DNA of 64,000 nucleotides from Rhizophagus irregularis. Its lineage: Eukaryota. The stretch is from NCBI RefSeq assembly GCF_026210795.1, contig NC_089430.1, forward strand, positions 5,828,001-5,892,000, in the 5' to 3' direction. How positions within the stretch are numbered: the first letter of the stretch is position 1; the number at the start of each line of letters is the position of its first letter. Position numbers and translations under genes: made by a program. This document shows positions 2,341 to 30,804 of this stretch, in pieces. The notes below the pieces were generated by a model. It was not told where the DNA came from. It made no database searches and was given only the letters and a program-made list of their open reading frames with translations.

Positions 2341-2426
2341 GATCACTTCTAAAAATAACAAATTTATACACCTATACTAGATATAAAACTACGCCTCGTG
2401 ACTATTAAAGTTACTAGATGATTCCG

Positions 2427-2612
2427 CACCCCAGCCAAATGATCGACATAGTTTATAAGCTGGATGTTCGTGCGCTAACTTATAGCTTATAAACTGCCCA
2501 TGGGCATATGTAGCCCACGGGATCTGATTGGTTCAGAATGAGGACAATAATGTCCCCGTAATTATGGACTATGTTGCGCCTTCAGTTTAAAAATGAGGAC
2601 AATAATGTCCTC
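2427..2612 (+). repeat. Left terminal inverted repeat (perfect part about 186 bp)
   Basis: Base-by-base match to the reverse complement of 20658-20843; first mismatch at about 2613. Contains internal palindromes AGTTTATAAGCT..AGCTTATAAACT and TGCCCATGGGCA. Confidence 0.95.
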
Positions 2613-4130
2613 ATAATTATGGACTATGATGCGCCTTATTCAGCTTAAAAATGAGGACAATAATGTCCTCATAATTATGGACTATGATAGTTCTTTAGTT
2701 TAAAAATGAGGACAATAATGTCCTCGTAATTATGGACTATGAAGTGCCTTCAATTTAAGAATGAGGACAATAATGTCCTCGTAATTATGGACTATGATAG
2801 TCCTTTAGTTTAAAAATGAGGACAATAATGTCCTCGTAATTATGGACCATGATAGATCTTCAGTTTAAAAATGAGGACAATAATGTCCTAATAATTATGG
2901 ACAATGATGTGCCTTCAGTTTAAAAATGAGGACAATAATGTCCTCATAATTATAGACTATGATAGTCCTTTAGTTTAAAAATGAGGACAATAATGTCCTC
3001 GTAATTATGGACTATGAAGTGCCTTCAATTTAAAAATGAGGACAATAATGTCCTCGTAATTATAGACTATGATAGTCCTTTAGTTTAAAAATGAGGACAA
3101 TAATGTCCTCGTAATTATGGACTATGAAGTGCCTTCAATTTAAAAATGAGGACAATAATGTCCTCGTAATTATAGACTATGATAGTCCTTTAGTTTAAAA
3201 ATGAGGACAATAATGTCCTTGTAATTATGGACTATGAAGTGCCTTCAATTTAAGAATGAGGACAATAATGTCCTCGTAATTATGGACCATGATAGATCTT
3301 CAGTTTAAAAATGAGGACAATAATGTCCTCGTAATTATGGACTATGACAAGCCTTTAGTTTAAAAATGAGGACAATAATGTCCTCGTAATTATGGACTAT
3401 GATAGACCTTCAACTTAAAAATGAGGACAATAATGTCCTCGTAATTATGGACTAGTATGAAGTGTCTTCAGTTTAAAAATGAGGACAATAATGTCCCTGT
3501 GATTATGGACTATGATAGATCTTCAGTTTAAAAATAAGGACAATAATGTCCTAATAATTATGGACTATGAAGTGCCTTCAATTTAAGAATGAGGACAATA
3601 ATGTCCTCGTAATTATGGACCATGATAGTCCTTTAGTTTAAAAATGAGGACAATAATGTCCTCGTAATTATGGACTATGATAGACCTTCAACTTAAAAAT
3701 GAGGACAATAATGTCCTTGTAATTATGGACTAGTATGAAGTGTCTTCAGTTTAAAAATGAGGACAATAATGTCCCTGTGATTATGGACTATGATAGATCT
3801 TCAGTTTAAATATAAGGACAATAATGTCCTAATAATTATGGACAATGATGTGCCTTCAGTTTAAAAATGAGGACAATAATGTCCTCGTAATTGTGAACTA
3901 TGATAGTCCTTTAGTTTAAAAATGAGGACAATAATGTCCTCGTAATTATGGACTATGATAGACCTTCAACTTAAAAATGAGGACAATAATGTCCTCGTAT
4001 TTATGGACTATGATGTGCCTTCAGTTTAAAAATGAGGACAATAATGTCCTCGTAATTATAGATTATGATAGTCCTTTAGTTTAAAAATAGCTCTCATAAT
4101 TACAGACTATATTGGACCTCTCATTTAAAT
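2538..4130 (+). repeat. Left subterminal tandem array, 28 x 55-bp units plus a degenerate tail
   Basis: Unit ATGAGGACAATAATGTCCTCGTAATTATGGACTATGA(N6)TTYARTTTAAAA starting at 2538, 2593, 2651, 2706, 2761 ... 4032. Confidence 0.95.
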
Positions 4131-4336
4131 TATATTCAGCTTCTGTATTCATATATAGATTATAGGAACCTCCTAATTAGTAAATGGACAATCATAGTGT
4201 CTTTATAATTATAGATCTCATTTAAAATAATAACAGTAGTATACTCATATAACTTACTATTAACAGGTTATATTATAAATAGCATGTTCTTTTTGTTTAA
4301 AATGTATTTTCATATTTGATTGTCTATTTAAACCAC

Positions 4337-4472
4337 TTATGGACTGTTCCCTGACAGGACATTTTTCCAATAACCTAACGCTGGCCGTTTGATCACGTGT
4401 TCATGCATAACCTGCATAACACTGGCCAAATCTTTCAGGCAAATGTAATCCCGTCAGGAAATTGTGCCATAA
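4337..4472. mobile_element. Small degenerate MITE-like element
   Basis: Imperfect IR TTATGGACTGTTCCCTGACAGGA ... TCCCGTCAGGAAATTGTGCCATAA around a GC-richer core. Confidence 0.3.
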
Positions 4473-4728
4473 CCATTTAAACTAAAAGGTAATAATGTGG
4501 CAGAAAATTTAGAGAAATAAAAATATATTTTAATTGCAATATTTTTTTACCGCTTTAAACTCCTAATCAAATTGTTAGAAAAGTTATTTTTAAAGTAAAA
4601 TAGGTTTCTTCTATTTATTTCAAAGTTGTTATAATAAATATTATATCATATATGACTAATTTTTTTAAGTATCAAAATATTTGTCAGATTTATTAGATAT
4701 TCAATTCATATTGCTCCTTTTGGATCGA

Positions 4729-7700
4729 TTATACTATTTTATAATCCATACTTTCACCTTCTGTTATTATTTCTTCTTCACAATCTTTACTTTTATCTAC
4801 TATTTCCCCTTCATATTCTATACATTCTTCATTATCACAAATTTCTAATTCAGTTAAATTTTCTGCTAAATCTCCTTTTAAAAGATTATCTTCCTCAATC
4901 TCATTAATTAAATCATAAATTGGAACATCTACTACTTGTACAGTATTATTCACTTTGTAATTTTCAATTTTGTTTAAAGCTATCTGACAATTTTCTAAAT
5001 TTTTACTTACATTTTTATAATATTTCATCAAAATACAAATCATTCCATACTACAAACAAATTTTTTATTTAGATTATTAATAGCTTGTTCAAAATAATTA
5101 CAAGATAAAAATGAATAATACTTACATTTTTTGTAGTTTTTTCATTAAATTGTTGTAATTGTTGTAATTTATTTTCAATTTTAATTTTATAATTCATCCA
5201 GAAATCATATAATCTTTTTAATTCTTGCACAATTAATGATATTTCTTCTTTAGACCGTTGTAAATTATTAAAATTTTTAATTGAATTGAATATAACTATT
5301 CGAGGTATATTATCCATTTTATCATTAATTGATATATCTAATATTTGCCAAAAATCTGACGTATGATTAACTATTTCATTAAATATTGCTTTTGGATAAT
5401 CTTTACAAAATGAATTTTCTTGTGCAAGTAATCTGAAATATTCATAATATGAAATGTTTATTTCAATTTGTTTTGAAATATCTTTAATACTTGATTTAAT
5501 TTTTAATGTTAACTTATGACCTAATAAAAATAAATATGGTTAAATAATATTTTAATAAATAAGTTAAGATTACAAATATATATAATTACCTATATGGTCT
5601 TGATTATATAATTGTGAATTTTTAAATATATATTCATTACGAAATTTTCTAAGCTTATCAGAAATTAAATCCAAATTACGTTCACAATAATCATGAAAAT
5701 ATTTGGAATATATAGGATTAAATGGATTCCATCTTTTTGATTCAGGTATATCTAAATCTGATTCACATTTTTCAACTTTTTTTATATATAATGAGCGAGA
5801 TCTTTTTAATGATTCCAACTGTCTTTCAGAGTTAGCTTTTGATATTTCAATCCTAAAAAAATAATATTAGTATTTAGTAATATTAAAATAATTATTACTT
5901 GAATAAAATTAGTACATACTCATATCGATGTAATTCCATTAGGTTTAAGAAATACAACTCTTTTCCAATTAAATGTTGCCTAAAAACTAAAAATCTCATA
6001 TATTAAAACTAATTTTTAAAAAATTAGCATAATAAAATACATAATATTTACCAAAATTGGATTCATACTGGCACTGAATATAATAAAGTATTTTACTTTC
6101 ATCAATTCCATGCATTTGTTCCATTTCTTTTAATATTTTTACTGATACATTCATTATTTTATAAGCATTTTTAAACCTTTTAACTAAGTTACATGCTGAT
6201 ATAAAATAAAAATATAAATTAAAATATAAATATTTTAAATTATCATAAATTTAATTGAACATTACCTAAATTACTAATCATTTTTCTACTTATATGCTGA
6301 ATTCCTTTTTCTAAAATATCCAATCTATGATGTGGTCTCATATATCTTGTTGTAGAAGAAAAGCGTCCTAAATATGACCACAGTCTTTCTAAACTTTCCC
6401 CATCAGTTAATCCTATGGAATTACAAGCCCTTGGGTGGTAATTTAATTGGCATTTCATTGAATGTGCATAGGCATGAAATATTGAAACACACCAATTAAA
6501 TCGAGATTTGAATGGAAAAAGTCTACTTTCACTTTTTTCTACATGTGAATGAAGATTGCATGCAATATCATATAAGACAATAAATGTAGAAGAATCTTCA
6601 TAAAACATATTATGTAAATCTGATAAAATATATTCTGCTAAAGAAAATCTATAAAAATGTAATTATATAATATGAATAACTAATGTTAATATCAAATGTT
6701 AATATTACAATAATATATAAATTACCTTTCACCAATTCCTTTTAAATTAATAAATTTTAAAGGAATGCCGTGCCTACATGTACTTCCAAATATTCCTGTA
6801 TCGTCCAAATAATTGGATTTAAGGTTTGCTTTTGTTTGATTAGCCGCTTTAAAATGGCTGTCACATACATTTATTTGCTTAATGAAATAATAAATAATTA
6901 ATAATTAACAAATTAAAATAATAAATGAAGTTAAATAAACAACAAATATATATATAGAATACTTACCGCATTATTATTATTTATATTTAATGTATTTAAT
7001 GAACTTAAATTAATCGAATTTTGTACCCATTCATCATATTTATTTTGGTTTAAAATAAATGATTCTTCAATTATTCTTTCACCAATATTAGAACCAGCAC
7101 TTTTCATTCGTTTAAGTTGAAAATTAGCATCCAATGCAATTATAATTTTAGAGTTTTTCTCTTCTGGCTATAATTAAATTTGTTTATTAATTCAAAATAT
7201 AATGTAAAAAAGTTTTTAAAAATATAAATGGGAAGTAAATCAAGCAAAAAATAAAGTTACCTGTGGACAAGCTGGACAATTAAATTGTGATTTACTACTA
7301 AATAACTTATTAATAGTATTTTCAATCATAGTTTTTAATCCTAAATATTGATGAAAAGCAGATTTAAAAAGATAATATATGTTCTAATAATAATAAAAAC
7401 ATATTAGTAAACTATATAACATTAATATAATGAAATTTTTTAAAAACTTAACTCTAGTTATATCTTGATCAGAGAATAATGATTCTAATACTCGACAAAA
7501 TGAAAGATATGATACATGTGCTTCGAGTAATAATTCTTGATAAATATCAAATAATTCAAATGAGAAAGCAACTTGTGGATTTATAGGGGTGGAAGGAAAT
7601 AATTTATGCCTGATTAATGTTTCGACCAAACCTTCACAAGTTGGAAATTTTGCTTTAAATATTCCTATTTAATGCAATATTTATTTAATTGAAAATTTTA

Positions 7701-8373
7701 TTAAAGTATAACAAATAAGATTTATACTTTACCTTTTAAATTAATGATTGATATTTCCTTAATTTCATGCTCACAAAATCCTGTACATAATTGTGGTAGT
7801 TTTATTTCTTCTTTATCAAAAATATTACTTATAAAAACTTTTCTATGAAATAAATTTATATCCTTATGATATAAAGTATTACACTCTAAACACAAATAAG
7901 TATTAAGACCACAATCTAAACAATAACAAATGGCAGGTGAATTACATTTGAAGCATTTGGAGTCCTTATTAATTGCATTATTTTCTATCATAATGTCAAA
8001 TAATTTTGGTGAGATTTTTCTCCAATTTTCGGACAAATTTTTTTGAGCATTTTTATATGTATTTTTAGCAGAACTATAGTTTTCATCTTCTTTTATAATA
8101 TCAATATCTATCCATTCATCATTGTTTCTATCTTCATCCACTATTTCAGTAGATTTATATATATTTTCAGATAAATTTTTGGCTCGATATTTGTTACTTC
8201 CTTTTGCATATCGATTAATAACTACTTTTTTTGCATTTTTTTTATTTGAAGAAACTAAATAAGGCCTGTAACTAATTTTACCTAAAAATAAAAGATATTA
8301 AGTAACAATTTAAATATATTTCTTTAATAACAATAATATAAATACCTTTTTTATTCAAATTTCCTTTATTCAT
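4729..8373 (-). CDS. KDZ-family DDE transposase with N-terminal Cys clusters (multi-exon; no lesion found in the exons checked)
   Basis: Spliced reading: ATG at 8373; CFKC..CYCLDC..CLEC..H zinc cluster; LIRHKLFPSTP..AFSFEL (CxC-like); CPACP; IIALDANFQLKR (D1); CDSHFKAA..DDTGIFGSTCRHG..GER; VLYDIAC (D2); FHAYAH..CQ..GLTDGESLERLWS (E). These match the Pfam KDZ motif order. Confidence 0.9.
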
Positions 8374-8910
8374 ATTAAATATGTAAAAAGAATAAATTTA
8401 CAAAAAAAAAATTTTTCGGGATTGATCAAACTAAATTAGCCAATTAGACTACTTGCTGCAGATCAAATCTATTTATAAAATAAAAGCAGATTAGCAGATA
8501 TTACCATAAGTACCTTATAACACTGCCTAATACCTTAGGTATAAATCAATTTACCAGGTTTAAAACATTTAATTAGATCGGGTGTATACATACATCCTGC
8601 TGTATTAAACAAATTTAATGTACGAAAGATTTCATTCAACTTATAGTAATGGTTTAATGGTTTAATATTCTTAATTTAAGAAAATAAAAAAAATCTATAT
8701 ATTATGATATTTTGGGTCGGTATTAAATATAGAAGCTAAAATGGGCCTTTTAAGCAATGCACGGTAACTTTAATTTATACTGAACTATTACTTTAAGAAT
8801 CTTTTATTTCAATAATTTTAATAATATTTAGTAAAGATTTTATAATAATTCCCTACTTCAAAAAAAAAACAATACAAATTTAACTAAAAATTAATAAATG
8901 CTAAAACTCA

Positions 8911-10900
8911 TTAATCTAGTTCCATTATTTCATATGCTGACAATTTATCAAATAAAATTTTTGTATTTAATGGTCGTACTCCTTCATTTAAATTTTCTAT
9001 TGAATTGATATCAAGTGCTTCCATAAATATTTCATAAAAATGGTTGGTGGATTCAAAATCAGATACGTGCATTCCTACTTTAATTATCTGATTAAAGGAT
9101 ATTCCTGCACTAACGATATGTTGTAACCTCATTGCACTTGTTTTAAAACGTCGTTCTGAACATTCTGAAATGCCTTCTTGAATACAAATAATCTCTTTTA
9201 CAAATGTCCTTTGTTTACCCTTCTGATTTGGAAAATTTGATTCTGCCACAACATTAATTTCATTATAAATATCAATCAAGGACATCCTATGATAAAACTT
9301 GAATACATTGAACGCTATTCCAATTTTTTCTATTTGGTTCTTTTGGAGGGCCCACTGCTTGACTCTTTGTATACCACTTGTTTTATCTATAATCTTAATT
9401 GGTTCAGCAGTTAAAAGATTAAGGGAGTGCGTTAAATTATTATTTTGTAAATCCGATTCATTAACCATATCTTTATCTGCCAATTTTTGAACTGGTGAAT
9501 CATGAGTATTTGATTGAAGATCATCCATAACTAGTTTTCGGAGTTTTTCACCAAATTTTTTGAATTTCTTCTCTTTTAATTCTTTAGCTTCAAGGTTTTT
9601 TTTTGCTTTATCTATTGATTTAAGAAATATAATAGATTATATAAATATAAATTAATAATAATTATATTTATTAGTTCAATAAAAAACAGAAATACCTTCA
9701 GTTTCTTCATTTTGTATATCGTCATTTTCTACATCAATCTCCATAATTTCTACATCTTCGTCCACTTCATTTTTATTATCTACATTAATTTTTACAACTT
9801 CTATGCTTTCATTTACATTATCTCTTACTTTCTTTCCTTTAATTAAAGAGACAAATGATAATGGAACTGATGTTGAAGATGGTGATGGTTGAATTAATGT
9901 TGAGAACGAAGATGAAGATGAAATTAAAGTTGGGGACGACGATAACATATCATTTTTCTGCATATATTCGTTGATTTTAGCGATCCATTTTTCTATTAAA
10001 CATTTAAAATCTTTTAGTTTTTTCCATTCTGCATAAATAGGTAGAATATCAGCCCCCCATTTTATATCCTCTCTTGTAGGTTGTTTGATTTCGTTATTAT
10101 ATCCAAATTTTTTGTGGCATCTGGAATTTAATTTCTCCCAAATTTCATCAGAATCATCTTCAATTGATTGATTAACGGTATTTAAATCATCATTTAAAAC
10201 TGTAATATAATCTTCTAATTTAAAAGGTTTAGAAGAAGTTGATATAGACGGGGATGACATTGATGGCAAATTATTAGATGCAGTAGAAGTTGTAGATATG
10301 TTATCAACTAGACTAGTTTCGTTATTATCATTATCTGATGATACGACTGTTGAAAATGATCCATCAAAACGCGCCAGGGTTTCAAACTTCTTCAATTCAG
10401 ACTAAAGTAAATTTTAATATATTAAATAAAATTTTAATAAAATGTAAATTTTAAAATTAAAACACATTTGTATTATATATAACACTATTTACCAGCAAAT
10501 TATTATTTTCAGCTTTAAGTGCTTCGAGTTTTTCCTAATATGCATATAAAAATATAAATATAAATTATAGAGAAAAAAAGAATTTAATTTTAATAATCTT
10601 ACTTCTAAATTTTCATAATAATTATTATCCTTCAAATCGATCATCAATCTATCTTTATGTTTTCCATATATGACGACAGCTGTACGATCGTTGATGACAG
10701 AAATGTTTTTAAGGCGGCCTTGAAGTTTATTACGAATAAAAGATAAAGCTTCTGAAATTTTTATATTGTCATTATCAGATAATGATAATGAAACTTTATT
10801 GTCCTTAAAGTTAAATAAATAAACATATTAAATACATTATAAATAATTTTATTTAACTATAATAACTAAAAGTACAATTTACCTTTATATTATTTGACAT
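8911..10900 (-). CDS. Uncharacterised transposon-borne protein (5 exons, roughly 550 aa; coiled coil, Ser-rich and acidic linkers, helical C-terminal domain)
   Basis: GT-AG introns join MSNNIK|DNKVSL..NLE|EKLEALKAENNNLL|SELKKFET.. (ORF 9676-10395)|DKAKK..MDDLQ (ORF 8911-9528) in frame. Confidence 0.75.
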
Positions 10901-10987
10901 TGTAAAAGTTTAAAATTTCGTAAACGTTAAAAAAAAGAAAAATAGGGATTGTTTATGTTATTTTATTCTAGTACATTTGTAATTAAT

Positions 10988-11292
10988 TATTTTTAGAATT
11001 AAACGCGTAATGGTAAAATGTTTTACTATTTTTAGAATTAAACGCGTAATGGAAAATGTTTGAAATGTTTTCTATACTATTTATAGAATTAAATGACTTA
11101 AACGCGTAATGGGAAAATGTTTTACTATTTTTAGAATTAAACGCGTAATGGAAAAATGTTTAAAATGTTTTCAATACTATTTTTAGAATCAAACGCGTAA
11201 TGGGAAAATGTTTGAAATGTTTTCTATACTATTTTTAGAATTAAACGCGTAATGGGAAAATGTTTGAAATGTTTTCTATACTATTTTTAGAT
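10988..11292. promoter_or_regulatory. Tandem 40-60 bp repeats, each with an ACGCGT (MCB-like) box, upstream of the 10900 gene
   Basis: ACGCGT at 11003, 11042, 11102, 11141, 11193 and 11245, within TTTTAGAATTAAACGCGTAATGGGAAAATGTTT units. Confidence 0.55.
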
Positions 11293-11715
11293 TGTAACTC
11301 AAAATAGAATAATTACTTTAATTACCTGTTAAAAATTATAGAAAACTTATTTATAGTTTGTACTCCGATCAAATGGGGGCTAAAATAATAAAAAAAAATC
11401 TATACATTTTATTTGAATTTTTTTAATTAGTAACTATAATACAATTTAAATTACAAAGGATTATTTAATCATAAACGGTCAATTGAAAATAAAATGTAAT
11501 ATATCATCAATCAAATTTAAATTAATGATTACTAAATAAAAAAAGATAGTTATAGGGTTTTTGTGTAAAAATTATTTTCTTGTGCAAATTTATATATTAA
11601 ATCAATCACAAAAATGATGCAAATTTATTGTGGCATAAAATTCTTCATATTAGGCGAAAAAATTTAACTTCATTTGCGATTATTTTTTCAAGAAATAAAT
11701 ATTACTGATTATCAT

Positions 11716-11977
11716 CATTGCAGCAGATTTATAAAGATTTATGAAATTTGGAAAAAGTCCTGCTGCGCCCTTGGGAATTAAAATTGACTTACAGAAATTT
11801 TTCCTAAAAAAATGTCAAATAATGATGCGCCTTTAACACTGGAAAAAAAATTTTTAAAGCTCATTTTTGACTGTTCACTAATAAATTTGGGACTTAAATA
11901 GAAATTTGGTGATCAAACATATAATTAATTTGACATGACAGACAAATTTTGGGGTATTTCATAAATCTGCCATGATG
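11716..11977 (+). mobile_element. MITE family A copy 1 (TIR consensus about CATYRCGGCGGATTTATGAAA)
   Basis: Homologous along its length to 19128-19453 and, inverted, to 30380-30804; about 20-bp TIRs. Confidence 0.75.
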
Positions 11978-12499
11978 TTAATTTTAATTAAGTTGTTATA
12001 TAAATATTATATATTTATTATGAAACTGAATATTAAACTTTTAATAATTATTTTTATATTTATTATAATCAAATAAAAAAATTCTGATTTTTCGATTTTT
12101 CCAATAACTTTTATTACGTCATATTTTGTATTGATTGTCTGATTTCACATGGTATAAAAGTAAATTTGGTTTCGGCTTTTAATGATTATCCTAATTAACG
12201 CTAATTAAATTGTTAAAATTCCAATTTTATTTTAAGATTTCTTTGCAAATATTTCAGTACTCTACACCTGGCTTCTATCAACTATTTATAATATAATCCA
12301 GTACCATCATTTATTATAGCTAAATTTGAGATAATCAAAATCTTTACTTGTATAATAAAACATGAGACAATAGAGAATACTGTATAAATGAAATATAAAT
12401 TTAAAGTTTTTCAAAGGGTGCCATTAAACAAAGAAGGTAGACACTTATAGGAGATAGAGCTTTTTCTTTAATTTAATTGTTTTAAAGAAATGTTTCTGA

Positions 12500-15300
12500 A
12501 ATTTCTTATTTTTTTTATAGAGATGCCAGCACGCAAAAAATAATAAAGCTCCAGATATTAGTGGGAATGTGGGATTCCATATGACTATTGGAAATATTGT
12601 AAAAATTTAACAAAAGGTTTTTGTTAGGAATAATTAATGAGGGTATGGAGTGTGGAGTAATTTTAGGAGAATGGAAAAAAGGTCTAATTTATCCGACTGG
12701 AATCAAGATTTGAAATTGATACAACCAATTACTTTAATAGAGACAGCGAGAAAATTATTTTTGAAAATTCTGGTAAATGACTAAGTAAAATTCTAACGAA
12801 GGAAAAATTTTGATGGGGACAAATTATGAAAGCTTTAAAAAATGATTTTATATGAGAAAGATTTTATGGGTTAAAAAATATTTACGATCTGCAACTTGAA
12901 AGTTTAAGTAAGAATGTTATTTATTTAGCAAATGGTAATGAAAAATTGAGTACTTTATTTAAAATCAAGATAATGCAAGAATAAATGAGATTGTGGACCG
13001 CAGTGTGCATAGGAGATATAAATGGTAAAGCAATAAAAGGACGCAATTGTTAGATTAACGATGCAATTAACTTGTTGAAATCAGAAACATGAGTTTATGC
13101 AATCATGAGATTTTAGACGAAAATGCAGGGCATAAGATTAAAGGTGGTAATATAGAGATAATAGATCTATTACCTGATTCAGAAATTTAAAGAAGTGCAT
13201 TATCACGAAGAAAGAAAGAAATTCTCTTTTTAGAACAATTATTGGAAGCAAATCAATTTAGAATAATGAAGTGGAAACATGTTTTATAGGAAATGATTTG
13301 AGTTTTAGAGGTAAAATACCTAATTGGTTTAAGATTGTAGAAAACGAAGTGAGAGAAAATAAAGAGATGAGAAATTTAATATAAAAATAAAAATTTTGAT
13401 AGAAATAATATTCATATGAAAATTTTTGATGAAAATGAGAAAGTGTCAAGAAATAATTTAATAACATGGAATGATGAAAAAGGATTTCCTATCTTTGGAG
13501 AAGATAGGAAAAAATCAAGAAATAAAAATTATAAGAGGATAGGGATACATTGGATCATGATAAATGAGAATATAAATATAGATGATTCACCTACTTTAAT
13601 TAAATGTAAGGGTTGTAAAAAGAATATAGGTAAAAAAAAATATGAATAAAGAGAGTAAAATTGAATGTTTAATTTATTTAAAATGAAGAAAGTAGGATTA
13701 TTAGAAAACGGAACGAAGGTTGGAATATCAAACCTTATGAGACATTCCGAAATATTAAAAATAAATGATCTGGTGGAAAAATATTTAAGAGAAGAATAAA
13801 AAGAATAAAGATTTAATACAAGAATTGAGATGATAGATAATTTGGTTAATACAAATAAAAATCTGATAGAATTTTAAAGAATAGTATTTTAGAGAAAGAC
13901 GATTTTAGTTTTAGGAGGAAGGTAAATTTTTTAATGATAGAGGTTATGAAACTAAAAAGTAAAGTTAAGGAAAATGGGAAAAAATCGATTGAATATTTAG
14001 TAATGTGGAAGATAAGACATGAAGAATTCGTTACAAAGAATGAGATTAATTTTAACAGAAAATTTAAAGTATTGTTTGAGAATGAATACAAAATTTTATT
14101 AAGATGTTTGATAATAGGTATCATTTTATTAAATAGTAATAGCGAATTAATTTTAGGTTTAGATGGGAAATTTTGTGAATTATCAAAGAATTATAGAAAA
14201 TTTAAGTACAAGACGAAGGTTAGATAATGAATACAATATGGAGTTATTGGTAATAGAAAAGTTTTGATCGCAAATGAATATAAGAACGATTTCGTGTACG
14301 GAGAAGGAGGCGAACGATATAAAAATATGTAAAGAAGAAATGGATAAATTCTATTGCAAATGAAAGAAAGCAAAAATGAAACATATATGATAGACTTTAA
14401 TGAAGGGGGATTAGTGACCAACGAATTCAATTTATATTGGAAATATAATTTGATTTTAGGAGATTTAAGGGGATGGCGAAAGAAAGTTTCAGAAGTGATA
14501 TGGAAGAACGAAATTTTAAATAGTAAAAAGATTGAAGATTTATTTTCCTATAATTACAGAAATAAATTCGATTGGGTAAAGTCTTTAAAATTTATAAGCA
14601 ATGGAACAAATTTACATTTTGGCAATGTGCGCAAGAGGACACAAAAGAAAGAGCGTATAAAATTAAAAATTGGATAAAAGAATTACTAACATATAGTGTA
14701 CTTTTTAAAAGGAAAATATTTGGATTGATAATGATACCTGCCCAAGATGCAATAAGGAAGAAGAAGATTGGTATAATTAATGGAAATGTGAGTGTAATGA
14801 ATTTTCTGTAAGAGAAATTATAGAGAATTCGATAAAAAGTTGGAGGATGAAAAAAAGATTGATGATTCGACAATATTATGAGATATTAATAGGATTTTGT
14901 TCAAGTATTAGAAAAGCCTACAAGAATTTTATTAGGTTTTAGTAGAGAATGGGAGATGCTTAGAGGATTATATAATAACAATTTCTGAAGAAAAAGAATA
15001 CAATATGATTATAGAAGAATTGTGGTGTTTTTGTTATGAGAATATAAGATTGAAAATATGGGATAAAAGATGTAAAGATGTAGTGGCGATAGAAGAAAAG
15101 AAGGATTTAAAGAAAGGTGAGAAAAAGAAACGTAAAAAAGATCAAAAGAGCAAAAGGAGGAGGTAAAGCGAGAAAAAATACAAAATAGCAGATAATATAG
15201 AAAAAGATAAAGAAAAAATATAGAAAACAATATTAGAAATAATGGAAGGTATATCAATTACGAAATCATGGGGGTATTAAAATAAATTAGTATAAAAAAA
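12500..15300 (+). pseudogene. Decayed non-LTR retrotransposon (LINE) ORF fragments
   Basis: Purine-rich plus strand with many stops and frameshifts. RT-like P-ITLIETARK text near 12725; RIGIHW/IKCKGC; DLRGWRK..FDW; AYKIKN..CPRC..EDW zinc-knuckle region near 14650-14790. Confidence 0.65.
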
Positions 15301-15859
15301 TTTTTTAGTATAAAATGCTTTTAGTTATAGAAGATAATTAAAATTTTTAATTATTTTTTAGTGTTTTAAAAATTTTTTTATGTAATCTTTTTGTAATTGA
15401 TAATAAATGCATTATTAAAATTAAAAAAATAAAAAAAAGGGATAAGTGGATTATAGGTGATGGAAGTTGGAAAAGAGGTGTGATAATTCTGGGCGAGTGG
15501 TCACTAATGAAAGTTTCGTTTGGTTTTAAACACATTTCCGTATAATGGAAGTTACTTGTAATCTTACTTTAGTTAAATTTTAGTTTTCTGTTAGGTCTAG
15601 AGTTTTTATATATGTTATGTGTGAAAGTTTTTTGTTTTTCTTTTTTTATTTTGTATTGTTTCTTTTGGGTTGAGTGACATCGATTATATATTGTTGTTAG
15701 TTCTTTTTGCACGCTCAGGTATATATAATTATATATGCTCTTTGTATTTAAATAGACTGGTTTGCTATAGGGTCATGTGCTTTTTCACATGCCTCTAGGT
15801 ATTTCTGACGTTAATATGTATATCTATGGTATTGTTTAATAAAGAAATGCAGTGCAAAT

Positions 15860-16700
15860 TTTTTTTAAAAAATAAAATATGGAAGGTTGTTATAGAAATG
15901 GGCCAAAGACCTTAGTAGTCTTAACAATAAGAAAGAAATTATGTTATTAAAATAATTAGAACAGCTATTTGTAACTAATATAAGTTAACATCAATTGGCC
16001 AATTTTGTTTATGATAATTCGTAATGAAACAAGTGTATCAAAATCATCAACTAATGCGATGGATACTCAAATTAGAGCTTTTAGGATCAAAAAGTTTCTT
16101 TAAACATTGCCAACATATGAAATATTATATCAAAGGAAAGTTTTTGGAACTTCTTCAGAGAAATGTATAAGATGTAATGAAGAAACAGAAACATGGGATC
16201 ATACTACTATATAGTAGCATTGTAACAAGATTCTTCTATTAATTTATGGATAGATGCAGTCAATGTAATTACAGAAGATAATAAAGAAAGAGAAAAGCTT
16301 TACAACATAGTAATGTTAAATCAAGATTATTTACATTAAGAATTTACTATATGAGATAATGCGTGGACTTTCTAACATCAAGATTTGGCAATATAAACAT
16401 TGTAAAGTAGATGATTCAAAGATGTTGAAGATATGTTGTGACTTATATTTGACGTATATATATGAAAAAATTTGGAAAATGAGATGTCAAGAAGTAGTAA
16501 GTTCTGAGAAGTCTCAAAGCATAGGTAAATTGGATTAAAAGATAAGGGGATTCTTGATTAGAGAAGGATAAAAGAAGTGATAGAGAAACAGAGGAGTTAA
16601 GTATAAATAATAAAAACAAAAAAATTCAGAAAATAGTAAAATTATTAAAAAAATAAAATGAGAAAATATTAGAAATGGTAATGAGTTAAATACCCTAACA
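15860..16700 (+). pseudogene. Second decayed LINE 3' fragment
   Basis: RAFRIKKFL..LPTYEILYQRK..CIRCNEETETWDH and KIWKMRCQEVV motifs, interrupted by stops. Confidence 0.6.
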
Positions 16701-16963
16701 GTGAATAAGCAAGCTTTCTAAAAATTCAGTAAAGAGAAGCAATTTGATAAGTTAGTAATTAAAAGTATGTCACCAAAACTTTGAATCATATTTTTTTCGT
16801 TATTTATTGTACAAATGATTGTTTGTTTGTTTCAGGTGATTATTAGCCAATCATAATTCTTGATCAAAATAGCTGACAGCCAATTAAAATAACATTTTCA
16901 TGCTTTTTTCATCACAATCTTTTCATCTTTTTGATCATTTAATCTCTTTACACCCATCTCATA

Positions 16964-18428
16964 ATGGATATTTCAACGTAAAGTTTTTTTGATATACTGT
17001 TTAAAAATTATTTACCTTGTATTAATATCTCATATCTGATTCTTTTAGTGATCAACTTTTCAAAGAAAAAGGCGATGGTAATTACAATATAATGTTTTAA
17101 ATATTAAAATACTTTATACTTTCAGTTTATATTTAAGTTAATTAATTTAATTTAGGTCTTACACAGGAAAAATATGAAAAGATTATTGCTTTACAACAAA
17201 AACATGATGCAGAAATCCAAATGTTATCTGATGAATGCCAACTTGAGCTAGCATTTATAAAGGTTAAAAATTTTGAATACAATTCAAAGAATAATTTATT
17301 TTGATTTGACCAAATTTTTTATAAATTATAGAGTATCATGAAAGATAATCGAGAACCAGCACCAAAAAAGACTCGCAGTATTAGTTCATGGAATACATTT
17401 CAAACTGAATGGTTCAAAAAAAATAGTATGTTCTATAAATATTATTGGTTTAATTTATCATAAAATATTTACTTATTAAAAGAATTATATATTTACTAGA
17501 AATTAAAGTTACTACTCCAGGAGCTCAAAAACAATGTGCTGAAGAATATGCATTGCTTAATAAAGAACAATTGAATTCTTTTAAAAACAGAGCTGAAGAA
17601 TTATCTGAAAATAGATTCAATAAAGAACCAAAATTAATAGAAAGTATAAGACTTCGCAAAGCTGAATTAAATAAACAAATTTGTGAAATTAGAAAATTGG
17701 TATGTATATATATTATTAGATTATCAGTTAAAATATAAAATTCTATATAATTAATTATTAAATGCTTGATTTCTAGTATCGAACTTTACAAATTACCTGT
17801 GATGTAGAATTTTTGACACTTGTGATTCCTTTAAGCAAAGAATTGAACATCTCTTATTTTGGAACTCCAGTTGGTGAAGAATTTTACAAGTCCTGCTTAA
17901 AACTAGACGAAATTCATAACAGTTTTTATCATTTTTCTTGTTTAAAAAAATCAGGTATAATAATATTATTTTATACAAATGTTATAAAAATTAACTAACT
18001 TTTTATATTATTCTGTATCAGCTAAAAATGAAATTATTAAACAAGTTACATTTCAAAAAGATATAGAGGATATAACTATGATAGAAAGTGCAGATGATCA
18101 ATTATCTATTATTGATAAAGAATGTCCAAATAGTAAGAATGCACGTGATAAAGTTAGAAAATATTTACAAGAGAAATTTAGTAAGTAATAATTATAATTT
18201 TAAATATAATGGAAAGTTAATAATAATTATACTTAATTAATTATAGATTTGATAACAAAAGAAAGAATACCCTATAAAAATTGGTATAACCAAACTAAAT
18301 ATACTATAATAGGATGGCCTGAAGATGTTTTATTCTGTAATTATTCTGATTTAAGTACTGAAGATAAGAAAAAGATATTAAGTAATTTAAATAACATATA
18401 TTTTAAGATAAATAATTTGAGTGAATAG
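16964..18428 (+). CDS. HMG-box-like protein with C-terminal GWP domain (8 exons), transposon-borne
   Basis: Spliced reading: MDIST..PKKTRSISSWNTFQTEWF..CAEEYALLNKEQLNSFKNRAEE (divergent HMG box) ..RDKVRKYLQEKF..IPYKNW..IIGWPEDV..SE*. All introns are GT-AG. Confidence 0.75.
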
Positions 18429-19127
18429 TAGAATAGTTAGCATTATAGTTGGTAATAAAATAATTTCCCCAGTTCTAGAACTGGTTATTATGGTCTTTAA
18501 TCCAAGGTTATAAATTTTTCATCCAATAAAATGATTTAATTTCATTATCATATAATATTAAAATTTCATATTTCAAATTTCATATCAGTTTATTACAAAT
18601 TAGATATAATTAAATAATGACTGTTAAGTTATGACTGATAATTTCATTGTCTTTCTGATTAAGTCAAAGCTACATACATATAGCAAAATAATTTCAGTTT
18701 TATACCAGTCTAAAGAACAATCTTTAAAATGGCTCAAAGGCTGATTTGATCCAGTTCTAGTTAAAAGACTAGTTTTGTTAAAACCAGACTGGATCAGAAC
18801 AGAACAGACCAATTCATTATATACCAGTAAGCTAATTGTACATTTTAAATCATGTATATTATCATTATATAAAAATTGAAATTAAATATATTAAACCATA
18901 TGCAATTAATTAAAGAACTTTACAGTTGAATTTGCAACTTATTTAATACTTAAACTCTGGACTATAATTTTGATTGGATAATTAAAAATACTAGTACTAG
19001 CTAGTAAAAAAAAAATTTAAATAAGCAACTAAAGTTATACAGTCAAAGCTCGTCATAGTGAACTTTCCGTTCCACTATATAATTTTTTCCTTTATTTTTA
19101 AACTGAAGTCCATCATAGTCCATCATT

Positions 19128-19453
19128 TATTGCAGCGGATTTATGAAATTTGGCAAAAATCCTGCTGCGCCCTCAGAAATCAAAATTGACTTACCAAAAC
19201 ATTAAGCTTTTTCCTAAAAAATGTCAAATAATGATGTGCCTTTAATACTGAAATAATTGGTTAGATAATGGGAAAATTGGTTAGATGCAAGATTTAAGGT
19301 ACAAAAAAATTTTTTAGAACTCATTTTTGACTGTTCACTAATAAATTTGGGACTTAAATAGAAATTTGATGACTAAAATAATACCTCATCTAATATTTAT
19401 TTAATTTGACATGACAGACAAATTTTTGGGTATTCTATAAATCCGCCATGATG
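19128..19453 (+). mobile_element. MITE family A copy 2, inserted into the innermost unit of the right array
   Basis: TATTGCAGCGGATTTATGAAA ... TATAAATCCGCCATGATG; the flanks rejoin into one 55-bp unit. Confidence 0.75.
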
Positions 19454-19456
19454 TAT

Positions 19457-20733
19457 AGGGACATTATTGTCCTAATTTTTAAACTAAAGCCCAACATAGT
19501 CCATAATTATGAGAATATTATTGTCCTCATTTTTAAATTGAAGGCGCATCATAGTCCATAATTATGAGGACATTATTGTCCTCATTTTTAAACTGAAGGC
19601 GCATCATAGTCCATAATTATGAGGACATTATTGTCCTCATTTTAAACTGAAGGCGCATCATAGTCCATGATTACGAGGACATTATTGTCCTCATTTTTAA
19701 ACTGAAGGTTTATCATAGTCCATAATTACGTTAGGACATTATTGTCCTCATTTTTAAACTGAAGGTCTATCATAGTCCATAATTATGAGGACATTGTCCT
19801 CATTTTTGAACTGAAGGCGCATCATAGTCCATAATTACGAGGACATTATTGTCCTAATTTTTAAACTGAAGGTTTGTCATAGTCCATAATTACGTTAGGA
19901 CATTATTGTCCTCATTTTTAAACTGAAGGCACATCATAGTCCATAATTATGAGGACATTATTGTCCTCATTTTTAAACTGAAGGCGCATCATAGTCCATA
20001 ATTACGAGGACATTATTGTCCTCATTTTTAAACTGAAGGTTTGTCATAGTCCATAATTACGTTAGGACATTATTGTCCTCAAGGCACATCATAGTCCATA
20101 ATTATGAGGACATTATTGTCCTCATTTTTAAACTGAAGGCATGTCATTGTCCATAATTACGAGGACATTATTGTCCTCATTTTTAAACTGAAGGCATATC
20201 ATAGTCCATAATTACGAGGACATTATTGTCCTCATTTTTAAATTGAAGGCACTTCATAGTCCATAATTACGAGGACATTATTGTCCTCATTTTTAAACTG
20301 AAGGTTTGTCATAGTCCATAATTACGTTAGGACATTATTGTCCTCATTTTTAAACTGAAGGCGCATCATAGTCCATAATTACGAGGACATTACTGTCCTC
20401 ATTTTTAAACTGAAGGCATGTCATTGTCCATAATTACGAGGACATTATTGTCCTCATTTTTAAACTGAAGGCATATCATAGTCCATAATTACGAGGACAT
20501 TATTGTCCTCATTTTTAAATTGAAGGCACTTCATAGTCCATAATTACGAGGACATTATTGTCCTCATTTTTAAACTAAAGGACTATCACAGTCCATAATT
20601 ATGAGGACATTATTGTCCTCATTTTTAAACTGAAGGACTATCATAGTCCATAATTACGAGGACATTATTGTCCTCATTTTTAAACTGAAGGCGCAACATA
20701 GTCCATAATTACGGGGACATTATTGTCCTCATT
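19457..20733 (-). repeat. Right subterminal tandem array, about 23 x 55-bp units, inverted relative to the left array
   Basis: Units GAGGACATTATTGTCCTCATTTTTAAACTGAAGG(N)CATAGTCCATAATTAC are the reverse complement of the left unit. Confidence 0.95.
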
Positions 20734-20843
20734 CTGAACCAATCAGATCCCGTGGGCTACATATGCCCATGGGCAGTTTATAAGCTATAAGTTAGCGCAC
20801 GAACATCCAGCTTATAAACTATGTCGATCATTTGGCTGGGGTG
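20658..20843 (-). repeat. Right terminal inverted repeat
   Basis: Exact reverse complement of 2427-2612, followed by the TSD TGATTCCG. Confidence 0.95.
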
Positions 20844-22799
20844 TGATTCCGGCGTTACGAACTTAAGCCCGTGATAACCCATTTTTTTTCTTTAAACCGA
20901 TTTTTTTCACTAAACCGATTTTTTAATATTTTTTGGGGATATAACTTTTTTTTCTATTTACAATCTTTTTTTTTCGAATTTTTTTTTGTTTTTTTGCCTT
21001 AAATATATTTTATATGATTTTGGAAAATACCTAGTACGCCAAAAACAATAAATAAATTGGGATTAAATGATTTTTTGGCGTACTACATACTGTATGTCCA
21101 TGTGGCGCGGTAAATTTAATAACAACAAAAACTTCATGAACTTTATGTTATTCATTTCAAATATCAATAGAACTCCTCCTTATGACAAATAAATTTAAGA
21201 GAAGCAGAATATTTTATCTTAATCTGGCAATAATAAATTTATGAACTAAAGTTGTAAGAAAGAATCATGCTACCAACGGTTTGGTATATAACCTCACTAA
21301 ATTTTTTTAATAAATAATCTTTTTTAAGAGAATTTTTTTTTCAGATTTATATTTTATTTATTCAATTCAAAAACTCTAACTCATATTCAATACTTTAACT
21401 GCTGCTTATTTAGTTTTATTTCTTTCATGTGTTCGATCATAAACACTAAATTATAATAATTTTATTATCCTAAATGCGTGTCAAAAGAACTACATATACC
21501 GTACATATCAAAAAAAAAACAATATTTTAAGGATAATATACTGTATTATCAAACCTCTACTTTTTATGTAACGTGCCGTGGGTGCTGGTGAAATAAAAGT
21601 ACCGGCTAGTTAGACCGTCATACATTTTATCAGGGGTTTCTTTTTTTGTAATTATTTTATTCTTTTTGCATTTTACGAGAAACTTGTCTTAAAAATCATA
21701 CTTTTTTTAAAGAACTTGACCTTTTAACAAAGATTTAGATATTTTTGTAATATGCAAAAAAAAGATTTTTATATGTCGATAATTTTATTGATGATTATTT
21801 TACAAGTATTCGCTAAATATTTATTTAAGGAAATTTATTACTATATTGGATACAATATATGAAACTATCACACTGTTTCTCCCTGTAATTTCTACAAGTA
21901 TATAAAAATTTTATTAATATTCATTAAAACTAGAGAATTTAATTAAACTCAAGAAAACCTAAGTTGTTTCTTTTGTAAAATTATGCATAACGCTAACAAT
22001 AAAATATGTATTATTACTTAACTGTTAGGCTAGGGGTTTTTATTAAACTTTTATTAGAATAAAATAATTTTTTATTAAATCTATTTTTTTGTATTTTATA
22101 GAAAATCTATCTGAATAATTACACTATAAACTTAGTAAATCTTTTCTCATGCAACATTACATATATTTTTGCTTGTTAATTATATTTTCGTTTATACTCT
22201 TAAAAGGAAACTCAAAAAAAGCTTGTTTTTAAGGGCGAACTTGTATGAGTAAAAAAAAAAATAATAGTTTATTTAAAAATTCTTACGGGGTAGATAATAA
22301 ACTTGCTTAATTAAGATAGGTATAATATATTAGAATTGACAATTAATTATTAAAATGAAGTGATTCAATTATGGTTACACAAATTTTGACAATATGAAAT
22401 GTTACTAGCTAATTGAAAAAATTTTAACATTTCATGCTAAGCCACAATAATATAGATAACATAACAATATAAATAAGTATCGATTGAAATAATTTTTTTT
22501 TGGTCACATTTGAAGCTTTACATTAAAAAAAAGTAATTTCGTTGTTAAACAGTTGCCACTCGATTAATGCATATTAATGCATGGTCCCGCACTGCATATA
22601 CGATTACGTTTGTGAAAATCCATGGTATTTACCCTGTGATTACATAATTTGTTTCGGCCGAGATTATTTACCCGTGATTATTACATAATTTGTTTCGGCC
22701 GAAATAATTTTTTTCTCCCGCAGTATACAATATATATATATACTAGCAACTTTGCGTCTTTTATTATTTTAAATCTGTTTATTAATTTATAAAAGTCTT

Positions 22800-25700
22800 A
22801 TGGACACATTAATTAAGAAACTAAAAATTGATAAGAAATGCAAAAAGTGTAAATTTAAATGTAATGCAATATATTTTCAACAAAATTTCAAAAATTGGAC
22901 AAGTGGGAATAAATATATTGATAAATTTATTCAAGATACTCAGCTATCGGCTCATTATAACACAAAAGAGGCATTGGAATGGATACCTTATGATAGATTT
23001 TATGATATTAAATATATTGAGAAAAAAAAAATGTATAGAGCAAATTGGATTGATGGATATATTTACGAATGGGATGATGAAAATCAAAATGGGAGAAGAA
23101 ATGGTGAAAATATGTCAGTAGGTTTAGTAGACTTGAAAAATTCAAATAATTCAAAAAATATTGAATTAGAATTAACTAATAAGGTAATATAATAAATTTA
23201 TTATTTTTAATTAAGAATTTTTATAACTATCACCGGATGATGATCACCAGTGACTGAAATTATGACGATCGACCAGCATTAAAATAGTGCCGGTAAAAAT
23301 TGATAATTCTGGCCAACGGTGATGATCACCCCGGTGATTTGAAGTAATTAAATTTTGAAAATTTTTATTTTTACTGTGAATTATAATTGTAGGTTAATAG
23401 AATATATGGAATAACTCAAGACCTTCAAACAAAAAATTATAAGATGGTTTTGGGTGATGAATGTGAAATATGTAATTATTTATGCAATGCAGTACACTTT
23501 CAACAAAATTTTGAAAATTGGACTAGTGGTAATGATGATATTGATAAATTTATTCAAGATACTCAGTTATCAGCCCATGCAAGAAAGGCACTAGAATGGA
23601 TTCCTTATGATAGATTTCATGATATTAGATATATTTCAGAAAAAAATGTGTATAGAGCAAATTGGATTGATGGATATATTTATGAATGGGATTATGAAAA
23701 TCAAAATTGGAGAAGAAATGATGAAAATATGTCAGTAGATTTGAAAAGTTTAGATAATCCAAAAAGTATCAAATTAGGATTTACTGATGAGGTATAAGTA
23801 GTTTATTATTTTTAATTAAATTTTGAAATTTTTAACTTTTACTGTGCATTATGTTTGTAGGTTAATAGAATTTATGGAATAACTCAAGATCCACAAACAA
23901 AAAATTATATGATGATTTTGAGTGATAAATGTAAATTATGTAATCTTATATGTAGCTCAATTCACTTTCAACAAAATTTTGGGAGTTGGACTAGTGGTAA
24001 TGATGAAATTGATAAATTTATTCAAGATACTCAGTTATCAGCCCATGATAATGCAGGAAAGGCACTAGAATGGATTCCTTATGATAGATTTCGTAATATT
24101 AAATATATTGAGGGAAAAAAAGTGTGTAGAGCAAATTGGATTGATGGATATATTAATGAATTGGATAATGAAAATCAAAATTGGAAGCGAAATGGTAAAA
24201 ATAAGTTAGTAGATTTAGTAGATTTGAAAAGTACAAACAATCCAAAAAATATCAAATTAGTATTAACTAATAAGGTACTACTATTATAAATTTATTATTT
24301 TAATTAAATTTTTAAAATTTTTAATTTTACTGCGTATTATATTTGTAGGTTAATACAATTTATGGAATAACTCAAGATCCACAAACAAAAGATTATATGA
24401 TGGTATTGAATGATAAATGTAAAAAATGTAATTATGCATGTAATGCAATACACTTTCAACAAAACTTTGAAAGTTGGACTAGTGGTAATGATGATATTGA
24501 TAAATTTATTCAAGATATTCAGCTATCAGTTCATTATAGCATAAAGGAAGCATTAGAATGGATACCTTATGATAGATTTCGTGAAATTAAACATATTGAG
24601 GAAAAAAAAGTGTGTAGAGCAAATTGGATTGACGGATGTATTTCTGAATGGAATAATTATGATCAAAATTGGAAAAGATCTGACAAAAATATGTTAGTAG
24701 CTTTTAAAAGTTTAAATAATCCGACAAAGTTTACATTAGAATTTATAAACAAGGTATTATTAGAATTTTGAAATCTTAATTTTGCTATTTTTACTAACAT
24801 GTTATTTTATAGCTTAAAATAGATTATATAGTTTATGGAATGACTCAAAATCCACAAACAAAAGATTATATGATGGTATTGAATGATAAATGTAAAAAAT
24901 GTAAGCATATATGTTATGCAATACACTTTCAACAAAATTTTGAAAGTTGGACTAGTGGTAATGATAACATTGATAAATTTATTCAAGACACTCAGCTATC
25001 AGCTCATTATAGCATAAAGGAAGCATTAGAATGGATACCTTATGATAGATTTCGTGATATTAAACATATTGAGGAAAAAAAAGTGCGTGTAGCAAATTGG
25101 ATTGATGGATACATTGATGGATGGGATAATGAAAATCAAAATTGGAAAAGATTCAACAAAAGTATGTCAGTAGTTTTGAAAAGTTTACTAAACAATCCAA
25201 AAAATATTAAATTAGAAAGTACTAATGAGGTAAAATAAATTTATTATTTTAATTAAATTTTAAAATTTTGAAATTTTTTAATTTTTACTGTGTATTATAT
25301 TTGTAGGTTAATAGACTTTATGGAATAACTCAAGATCCACAAACAAAAGATTATATGATGGTATTGAATGATAAATGTAAAAAATGTAATTATGTATGTA
25401 ATGCAATACACTTTCAACAAAACTTTGAAAGCTGGACTAGTGTAAATGATTATATTGATAAATTTATTCAAGACACTCAGCTATTAGCTCATTATAGGTC
25501 AGAAGAGGCATTGGAATGGATATCTTATGATAGATTTCGTGATATTAAACATATTGAGGAAAAAAAAGTGTGTAGAGCAAATTGGATTGATGGATACATT
25601 GATGGATGGGATAATGAAAATCAAAATTGGAAAAGATTCAACCAAAATATGTTGGTAGATTTGAAATATTTAAATGGCCCAAAAAATGCTACATTAGAAT

Positions 25701-30379: not shown

Positions 30380-30804
30380 CATCACGGCGGATTTATGAAA
30401 TACGCAAATTAAATAAATATTTAACAATATTTTAGTCACCAAATTTTTATTTTAAGTCCCCAAATATATTAGTGAAAGCCAAAAATGAGCCCAAAAAATT
30501 TTTTTTGTACCCCAAATCTTGCGTTTAACCACTTTTCCAACTAAATCCATTTTCCCAGTGTTAAAGGCGCGTCATTCTTTGACATTTTTTAGAAAAAGCT
30601 GTAAGTCTATTTTAATTCCCGAGGGCGCAGCAGGGTTTTTGCCTACTCGAAAAAAACTAAGTCCCTCAGATACTTATAGAAAATGGAAACAAGGAAGGGT
30701 GTGACGCATGTGACAAAAAAACAGTCACGTGAATTTTCGTGACATTTTTGAAGGGTACGCAGGGGAAATCGGTTTTTGCCAAATTTCATAAATCCGCCGC
30801 AATG
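30380..30804 (-). mobile_element. MITE family A copy 3, with a 127-bp insert (30644-30770)
   Basis: TIRs CATCACGGCGGATTTATGAAA and TTTCATAAATCCGCCGCAATG. The insert is bounded by GGTTTTTGCC direct repeats and matches 62321-62450. Confidence 0.75.

Follow-up and report, generated by a model that had tools for sequence, protein, structure and literature searches.

In Cryptococcus neoformans, the transposon KDZ1 spans 10,944 bp, is bounded by terminal inverted repeats (TIRs) of 236-241 bp and an 8-bp target-site duplication (TSD), and carries three coding genes; for KDZ1-3, which belong to the Dileera clade, full-length transposition with TSDs has been documented by insertion trapping (10.1101/2024.08.15.608186, 10.1101/2025.05.19.654958). 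Consensus sequences of fungal KDZ elements range from 9.8 to 24.4 kb (Kojima 2025, PMC12730594). KDZ has been found in Rhizophagus (Muszewska 2017, PMC5751038), DNA Zisupton labels have been given in R. irregularis (Yildirir 2021 preprint), and a study using a KDZ profile lists three Zisupton-labelled transposable elements (TEs) as upregulated in arbuscules and intraradical mycelium (Table S4 in Oliveira 2024, PMC11075540). Here, we describe a KDZ element of 18,417 bp in a 64-kb stretch of R. irregularis DNA (the window, i.e. the whole stretch that was analysed). We suggest that it is very probably an intact copy of a multi-copy R. irregularis KDZ family which, between 186-bp inverted ends, comprises a transposase, an HMG-box gene and a gene that belongs to no known family; it likely transposed in the recent past, by cut-and-paste.

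Ends, arrays and genes of the element

The element is delimited by two copies of the 8-mer TGATTCCG and by perfect TIRs, and the positions of its parts are collected in Table 1. The 8-mer occurs twice in the whole window, both strands counted, the duplication is exactly 8 bp with the ninth base pair differing, and at the base frequencies of the window the probability of an exact 8-bp match by chance at a given site is ~6e-6. No further copy of the element terminus lies elsewhere in the 64 kb. The perfect TIRs are possibly maintained by conversion between the ends and therefore date the copy only loosely. The two subterminal arrays are mutually inverted and differ in the order of their 55-bp units; each unit carries two short palindromes and is predicted, by DNA folding, to form a pair of short hairpins.

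All three gene models are hand-built, stop-free and joined by GT-AG introns of 64-93 nt, and the public proteins with which they were compared are predictions too. With the alternative splice 6052/5986 the transposase model reproduces P0031 letter for letter, whereas the other splice choice gives 937 aa. The protein consists of a Cys/His-rich N-terminal part, a CxC1/CxC2-like domain, the KDZ catalytic domain and a long helical C-terminal part. On P0006, which differs by one residue, PF18758 scores 174 bits (E 3.9e-51; cut-off 26.6), CxC2 34.5 bits (cut-off 27) and CxC1 28.7 bits (cut-off 26.9), and the exons in the window match PF18758 as well. The predicted catalytic motifs ALDANF (D317), YDIAC (D449) and DGESLERLW (E506/E509) are present together with HAYAH, and the further KDZ proteins that were compared share these motifs. 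With the catalytic exon as query, 30 proteins were found; the top six carry the name Rhizophagus irregularis and show 100% identity across the exon. Because the public proteins are identical, we take this species to be the host. The public models P0003, P0005 and P0007 fuse gene 2 to the transposase (window 8373-10900), and these fusions are probably annotation errors. Besides this family, R. irregularis has at least four others of the KDZ type, with identities of 42-51%; two of them have 25 cluster members each. Among the proteins found, the nearest relatives of these homologues outside the fungi come from Mytilus and Lineus.

Gene 2 has no Pfam family at the cut-off, and none of 29 homologues matches Pfam at E 0.001 (a thirtieth, P0156, a 3,724-aa match without a matched stretch, was dropped). 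Its C-terminal domain of ~170 aa is conserved and predicted to be all-helical (pLDDT, the predicted confidence of the structure, 90). With the C-terminal 179 residues as query, 58 representatives were found at E<=0.001; the profile has no match among PDB sequences, and Foldseek gives none at E<=0.001 in PDB or BFVD. An Atlas match to a viral coat cluster (0.92, 151 shared features) is taken as chance; the other top Atlas match, also at 0.92, is an unnamed Mucoromycota cluster (175 shared features). Among ten proteins looked up, two distant gene-2 homologues adjoin distant KDZ genes: RclHR1_11410003/GES96264 of R. clarus adjoins, by accession, the KDZ gene RclHR1_11410002/GES96263 (63% identical to the transposase of the window), and CAB4410212 is the neighbor of CAB4410210, which belongs to a KDZ cluster with full-length members ~42% identical. 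The homologues looked up also include proteins of Glomus cerebriforme, RhiirA5_349891 and metagenome proteins, but neighbors could be judged only for these two. Because distant homologues adjoin distant KDZ genes, we favor a lineage-wide accessory, most likely inherited within this KDZ lineage, over recent host cargo; by analogy, gene 2 would be a transposition or anti-silencing cofactor.

Gene 3 is read as a divergent HMG-box protein. Its top Foldseek matches are nearly all HMG boxes, none at E<=0.001, and its Atlas look-alikes (0.93-0.95) lie in Basidiomycota clusters, one of which is named HMG box. A GTF2I-like match on the C-terminus (E 0.0006-0.008, below cut-off) is a hint only. Fungal KDZ genes were reportedly associated with divergent HMG genes by Iyer et al. 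in 2014, and that work may already describe such accessory domains.

The three genes together span only ~7.1 kb of the 18.4 kb because the interior also holds decayed coding-like sequence at ~12,400-16,750 and two small nested repeats. The decayed sequence lies on the plus strand, is full of stops and frameshifts and has a strong G skew. A zf-RVT match below cut-off and a weak mutual likeness suggest that its two segments could be remnants of ORF2 of long interspersed nuclear elements (LINEs), with motifs that we take to resemble those of Rhizophagus LINE ORF2; neither Pfam nor PDB sequences gave a match above cut-off, nor did tblastx to five metagenome loci and the remainder of the window, and the first segment has no Pfam match of its own. 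The nested repeats resemble miniature inverted-repeat transposable elements (MITEs) and end in CATCA..TGATG. A third relative lies outside the element at ~30380-30803, and no TSD was seen around any of the three; CATCA..TGATG termini are given for PlavakaB (Kojima 2025, PMC12730594). TET/JBP has no Pfam match in genes 2 and 3 or in the frames over 10901-16962 and 18430-19457, a scan that did not take in the spacers 4089-4728 and 8374-8910 and that very divergent PE-type enzymes could escape.

The original prediction had proposed an 18.4-kb transposon with an exact 8-bp TSD, perfect TIRs of about 186 bp, kilobase subterminal arrays, a KDZ transposase with all three catalytic motifs, two further intact spliced genes and no visible TET/JBP gene. 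Its coordinates and counts held throughout, the TIRs measuring exactly 186 bp; what it had overlooked were ~4.5 kb of decayed LINE-like sequence and the two nested repeats.

Table 1. Features of the element in window coordinates, and terminus-related stretches in metagenome contigs
Feature	Position	Strand	Description
KDZ element	2427-20843		18,417 bp
Left TSD TGATTCCG (host DNA)	2419-2426	+	Exact match to right copy; empty contigs leave the flank after 2426
Left TIR, starts CACCCCAGCC	2427-2612	+	186 bp, perfect; unique over 2427-2536, then the array for its first 1.4 units; an X12 contig starts at 2427
Left subterminal array	2537-4088	+	55-bp unit, 28.1 copies
KDZ transposase gene	4729-8373	-	12 exons, 945 aa; hand-built spliced model, identical to P0031
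Gene 2	8911-10900	-	5 exons, 555 aa; hand-built spliced model, 1/555 residues differs from P0089
Short internal tandem repeat	10988-11291		Immediately upstream of gene 2; unit length 39-52 bp, with a higher order of ~100 bp
Nested MITE-like repeat, copy 1	11713-11977		CATCA..TGATG ends; 69% to copy 2
Decayed segment 1	12400-15300 (approximate)	+	Likely LINE ORF2 remnant; G skew, stops and frameshifts; tblastx to segment 2 E 2.5e-4
Decayed segment 2	15980-16750	+	Likely LINE ORF2 3' end; zf-RVT below cut-off, E 0.005-0.016
Gene 3, divergent HMG-box protein	16964-18428	+	8 exons, 320 aa; hand-built spliced model, identical to P0092
Nested MITE-like repeat, copy 2	19121-19453		CATCA..TGATG ends; inner edge of right array
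Right subterminal array	19459-20733	-	Same 55-bp unit, inverted; 23.3 copies
Right TIR	20658-20843	-	186 bp, perfect
Right TSD TGATTCCG	20844-20851	+	Exact match to left copy
Terminus-related stretches	L001:9998-10025, L002:471-576, L003:107-212, L004:3-94, L005:1141-1245		Metagenome contigs

Classification and comparison with described KDZ elements

The element is a member of the KDZ superfamily: it has the PF18758 domain, the motifs of the acidic triad with HAYAH, an N-terminal CxC domain and termini with an 8-bp TSD. Its ends are Dileera-like, with an 8-bp TSD, TIRs and CAC.. termini. The CxC domain scores slightly higher for CxC2 than for CxC1, whereas the Puccinia protein P0022 scores 143 bits for CxC1 and 15 for CxC2. 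In a tree of 16 rows, the Glomeromycotina proteins group with the KDZ proteins of Mytilus and Lineus (95/95), apart from those of Puccinia/Microbotryum, on long branches and under a midpoint root; the tree holds one row per family from the 30 catalytic-exon matches, near-identical and short rows having been left out, and no typed Kyakuja, Dileera or Zisupton references.

Four other assignments were considered and rejected. The Kyakuja subgroup is ruled out by the 8-bp TSD and the 186-bp TIRs; fungal Kyakuja share the KDZ transposase and CA..TG termini with our element, but Kyakuja-1/2_LB have 7-bp TSDs and no TIRs (PMC12730594). The label Zisupton-type of the original prediction is not upheld in its narrow sense, since P0006 has no CxC4/SWIM match in Pfam at E 0.05: Zisupton sensu stricto (fish; Cryptococcus KDZx1) is alike in its 8-bp TSD and KDZ domain, whereas the canonical CxC4 and SWIM are undetected here. 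Membership in the class of TET+ KDZ transposons is not supported: no TET/JBP match lies in genes 2 and 3 or in the other frames scanned, and the conserved domain of gene 2 is predicted to be all-helical. Finally, CAC termini and subterminal arrays are shared with CACTA/EnSpm elements, but the TSD is of 8 bp and not of 2-3 bp, and only the KDZ and CxC families match.

Cryptococcus KDZ1-3 resemble the Rhizophagus element in having TIRs (139-241 bp), an 8-bp TSD (4-8 bp in KDZ2/3) and a KDZ transposase, with CxC1, within 9-11 kb; KDZ1 also carries two further coding genes of unknown function, and no TET/JBP gene is described in these elements. In comparison, the Rhizophagus element is longer and has 55-bp arrays of 1.3-1.5 kb, an HMG-box gene, nested remnants and the slight preference for CxC2; moreover, its movement is inferred from sequence. 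In the accessible text, "subterminal", "tandem" and "HMG" are unmentioned in 10.1101/2025.05.19.654958 and "HMG" in 10.1101/2024.08.15.608186. The rust Dileera elements Zisupton-1_PGr, Dileera-1_PTrit and Dileera-2_MLP, which are 9.8-20.0 kb long, also have an 8-bp TSD, and Dileera-1_PTrit has the same terminus, CACCCCA; the rust elements carry a TET/JBP gene, whereas none was found in the Rhizophagus element (PMC12730594). The giant KDZ elements of Ectocarpus (to 30.3 kb) and Chlamydomonas (to 31.7 kb) are alike in exceeding 10 kb, in carrying accessory genes and in holding nested insertions of unrelated TEs that are fixed among copies. They belong to other host lineages, and many of the Ectocarpus families have a pseudogenised transposase, whereas that of the Rhizophagus element is intact (PMC12477816).

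Combining these comparisons, the novelty claimed in the original prediction stands only in part. A multi-gene architecture was already known from Cryptococcus KDZ1, the fungal consensus sequences and Ectocarpus, as was the presence of KDZ/Zisupton in Rhizophagus. What is new are the defined ends for a Glomeromycotina KDZ element, the kilobase palindromic arrays and the all-helical accessory gene beside two distant KDZ transposases. In the literature found, neither a delimited Glomeromycotina KDZ element nor such arrays in KDZ elements are reported, Repbase, Dfam and most subscription papers lying outside the search. In the parts of Kojima 2025 (PMC12730594) covered, Rhizophagus is named neither in the main text nor in the supplement, and Glomer- and HMG are absent from the main text; Oliveira 2025 (PMC11952901) does not mention KDZ terms. 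The TE library of Oliveira 2024 (PMC11075540), outside its supplement, may hold the family of our element.

Copies of the gene trio and the insertion site

In the accession run CAB448-449, the KDZ gene, gene 2 and gene 3 stand at consecutive accessions and in the order of the window at six of the eight loci seen (4496100-02, 4493699-701, 4480626-28, 4490606-08, 4488139-42 and 4491583-85); at the other two, the listed rows show no more than one or two of the genes. The trio also occurs at CAB5368134-36, CAB5359134-36, CAB5192225/27/29 and 16994_t-16996_t, and in one annotation gene 2 appears under four locus tags (OCT59_002306, _023575, _023905 and _029105). These copy counts are lower bounds, 15 of 17 KDZ and 15 of 18 gene-2 cluster members being listed. 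Copies differ by 1-3 of 945 residues in the KDZ protein (4 proteins), 1-6 of 555 in gene 2 (6) and 1-2 of 320 in gene 3 (3), i.e. they are at least 99% alike. Because consecutive accessions recur at many loci with few residue differences, we regard the trio as a young, dispersed, multi-copy unit, and since public genomes have it at many places with hardly any change, the element likely moved recently. The additional copies foreseen in the original prediction thus exist as near-identical gene trios at many loci, as shown by protein accessions and not by TIR and TSD ends.

The first 25 bp of the TIR match five loci in metagenomes. None of these holds the three genes by tblastn, and we therefore reject them as copies and regard them as related elements: their perfect identity to the terminus is limited to 28-35 bp, three continuing at 84-86% to 106 bp. 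One of them, L004, measures 92 bp and has both ends, but a TSD is not readable there because one side has 2 flank bases only. Such short relatives sharing the terminus are likely non-autonomous partners of KDZ transposases. Short relatives of the TIR are also abundant in runs X4 and X12 (loose ends 2461-2464).

Twenty-four runs were listed, of which six were compared at the left junction only and four (X1, X4, X12 and X14) for an empty site. In two of these four, X12 and X14, contigs run along the left flank as far as 2426, contain TGATTCCG once and then continue as GCATTAC..AAATTAAGCCCG, which resembles the right flank of the window, GCGTTACGAACTTAAGCCCG. The X4 contig also loses its match at 2426, and X1 has no cover at 2400-2419. 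Contigs break at 2425-2427, and in X12 one contig begins exactly at 2427 while another joins the terminus to a different flank. The latter is expected where one end occupies several sites, a point that the short relatives sharing 28-35 bp blur. The summed depth in X12 is 139 for the TIR and 10-15 for the flank contigs and was not used as a copy number. The fraction of words of 4100-10950 held is 0.00-0.04 in X21, X23 and X24 and 0.23 in X18 and X19, which has no bearing on expression. The insertion-site sequence (2180-2426, 20852-21000) has several homologues in other runs, and a short repeat lies at 20876-20924, right of the TSD; the element may have landed in another repeat.

Alternative readings, possible mechanism and significance

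Several observations weigh against an intact, recently moved copy of a multi-copy family. On the side of the copies, several public ones are split or truncated, that the accession run represents one assembly is what we infer, and the evidence is of protein accessions without a second copy bearing its own TSD pair. On the side of the insertion site, the empty contigs show two substitutions against the window flank and three insertions (22, 5 and 7 nt), the empty-site consensus (agreement 0.82) draws on a second contig type as well, and X4, X12 and X14 come from one study. Because of these indels, the two contig types and the single study, we call the site an element-free homologue and not a proven pre-insertion allele; the contigs may represent a diverged allele or a paralogous repeat. 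The empty site anticipated at the outset was recovered, with a single TGATTCCG and no element in X12 and X14, in a diverged flank that is perhaps not the direct allele. No record bridges the filled junction in the four runs among the records listed (27/35), and the filled junction is therefore seen in the window alone. On the side of the genes, the HMG support for gene 3 falls under every cut-off (HMG_box_2 in Pfam, E 0.11), and its predicted structure (mean pLDDT 44.5) is poor except for three confidently modelled helices at ~residues 65-122, the putative box. Finally, genes 2 and 3 and the arrays are tied to transposition only by co-occurrence.

These observations leave room for three alternatives. 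The family could be real and young yet now silent, through methylation or small RNAs, or mobilised in trans by a related KDZ family with similar ends, this copy being intact through recent insertion. The additional KDZ families at 42-51% identity and the many related short elements that share the first 28-35 bp of the terminus speak for this; however, the transposase in the window is identical to a protein under three accessions, as fits the copying of a working gene, and the upregulation of the three Zisupton-labelled TEs (PMC11075540), which is not tied to this family, also points away from it. We regard this alternative as possible but doubtful. That the mobile family is a shorter core of ~13 kb, and that 18.4 kb is peculiar to the window copy after LINE-like and MITE-like insertions, would account for the ~4.5 kb of decayed foreign sequence between genes 2 and 3 and for the variable number of accessions between these genes, which is zero in most trios and several at CAB4490859-64 and CAB5388983-87. 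We consider this unlikely: next to pristine ends and genes, the heavy decay of the remnants fits old passengers that were taken along in recent moves, as in the giant KDZ elements of Ectocarpus (PMC12477816).

Alternatively, the trio may have spread by segmental duplication, or the ends may be an assembly artefact of two collapsed arrays. Long tandem arrays are indeed prone to misassembly, the filled junction is unbridged as noted above, and one contig has two copies inside a span of seven accession numbers (CAB5359134-40). Yet the exact 8-bp duplication is unique in the window, the termini are like those of Dileera, the order of array units differs between the sides, and independent contigs break exactly at 2426/2427, so that this explanation is highly improbable. 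We retain the interpretation of an intact copy of a young, multi-copy family; from the sequence, the element may also be autonomous and currently active.

Based on other DDE transposases and on Cryptococcus KDZ1-3, we suggest that the transposase would act on the TIRs as an RNase H-fold DDE enzyme by cut-and-paste: (i) it would pair both ends and excise the unit by means of the triad D317/D449/E506-or-E509, (ii) insertion would occur at cuts 8 nt apart, and (iii) repair would give rise to the TSD. Host HMGB1 assists RAG and Sleeping Beauty by bending DNA, and by analogy the element-encoded HMG protein may bend the end DNA and aid the pairing of ends that lie 18 kb apart. Subterminal repeats serve as a binding platform in CACTA elements, and the palindromic 55-bp arrays could likewise be a repeated binding platform. 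Gene 2 might act as a cofactor or as a counter-silencing factor, by analogy with systems including Vandal elements, and the LINE-like remnants and MITE-like repeats would be older passengers. A wider and speculative scenario, to which we would assign little weight, is that arbuscular mycorrhizal fungi (AMF) have their own still-active KDZ lineage, nearer to animal than to rust-fungus KDZ, with a three-protein system in which the transposase is joined by a self-encoded HMG bender on palindromic arrays and by a conserved accessory protein of a new helical fold that replaces TET/JBP against host silencing.

In the model mycorrhizal fungus, where the majority of repeats are unclassified, a young multi-copy KDZ family now has precisely placed ends, a TSD and a defined set of genes. 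The genes of this family are annotated publicly as hypothetical host genes, sometimes fused, as in GLOIN_2v1886648. Strain-variable insertions of 18 kb bear on differences between AMF strains and nuclei, and junction markers are possible. If active, the element would be a rare endogenous mobile tool for a fungus in which transformation is difficult. Gene 2 represents a tractable new accessory protein family linked to KDZ elements, and this unexplained family and the unusual arrays are the parts most worth following.

Other features flank the element. To its left, a host gene at 31-1347 on the minus strand encodes a GTPase-like exon and a coiled-coil repeat, and we presume it to be AIG1-like. 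Run X21 shows three intron-sized joints in this gene, which is thus spliced in that run; the spliced joints are confined to it in a comparison of which the gene region of the element was not part. To the right, a 480-bp coding unit is repeated in tandem 10.8 times at 23405-28601 and has inverted relatives at ~40500-42140; it presumably resembles the repeated N-terminal units of Rhizophagus kinase-like genes. A second tandem array at 43310-46716 consists of 8 copies of a 429-bp unit at 94% identity.

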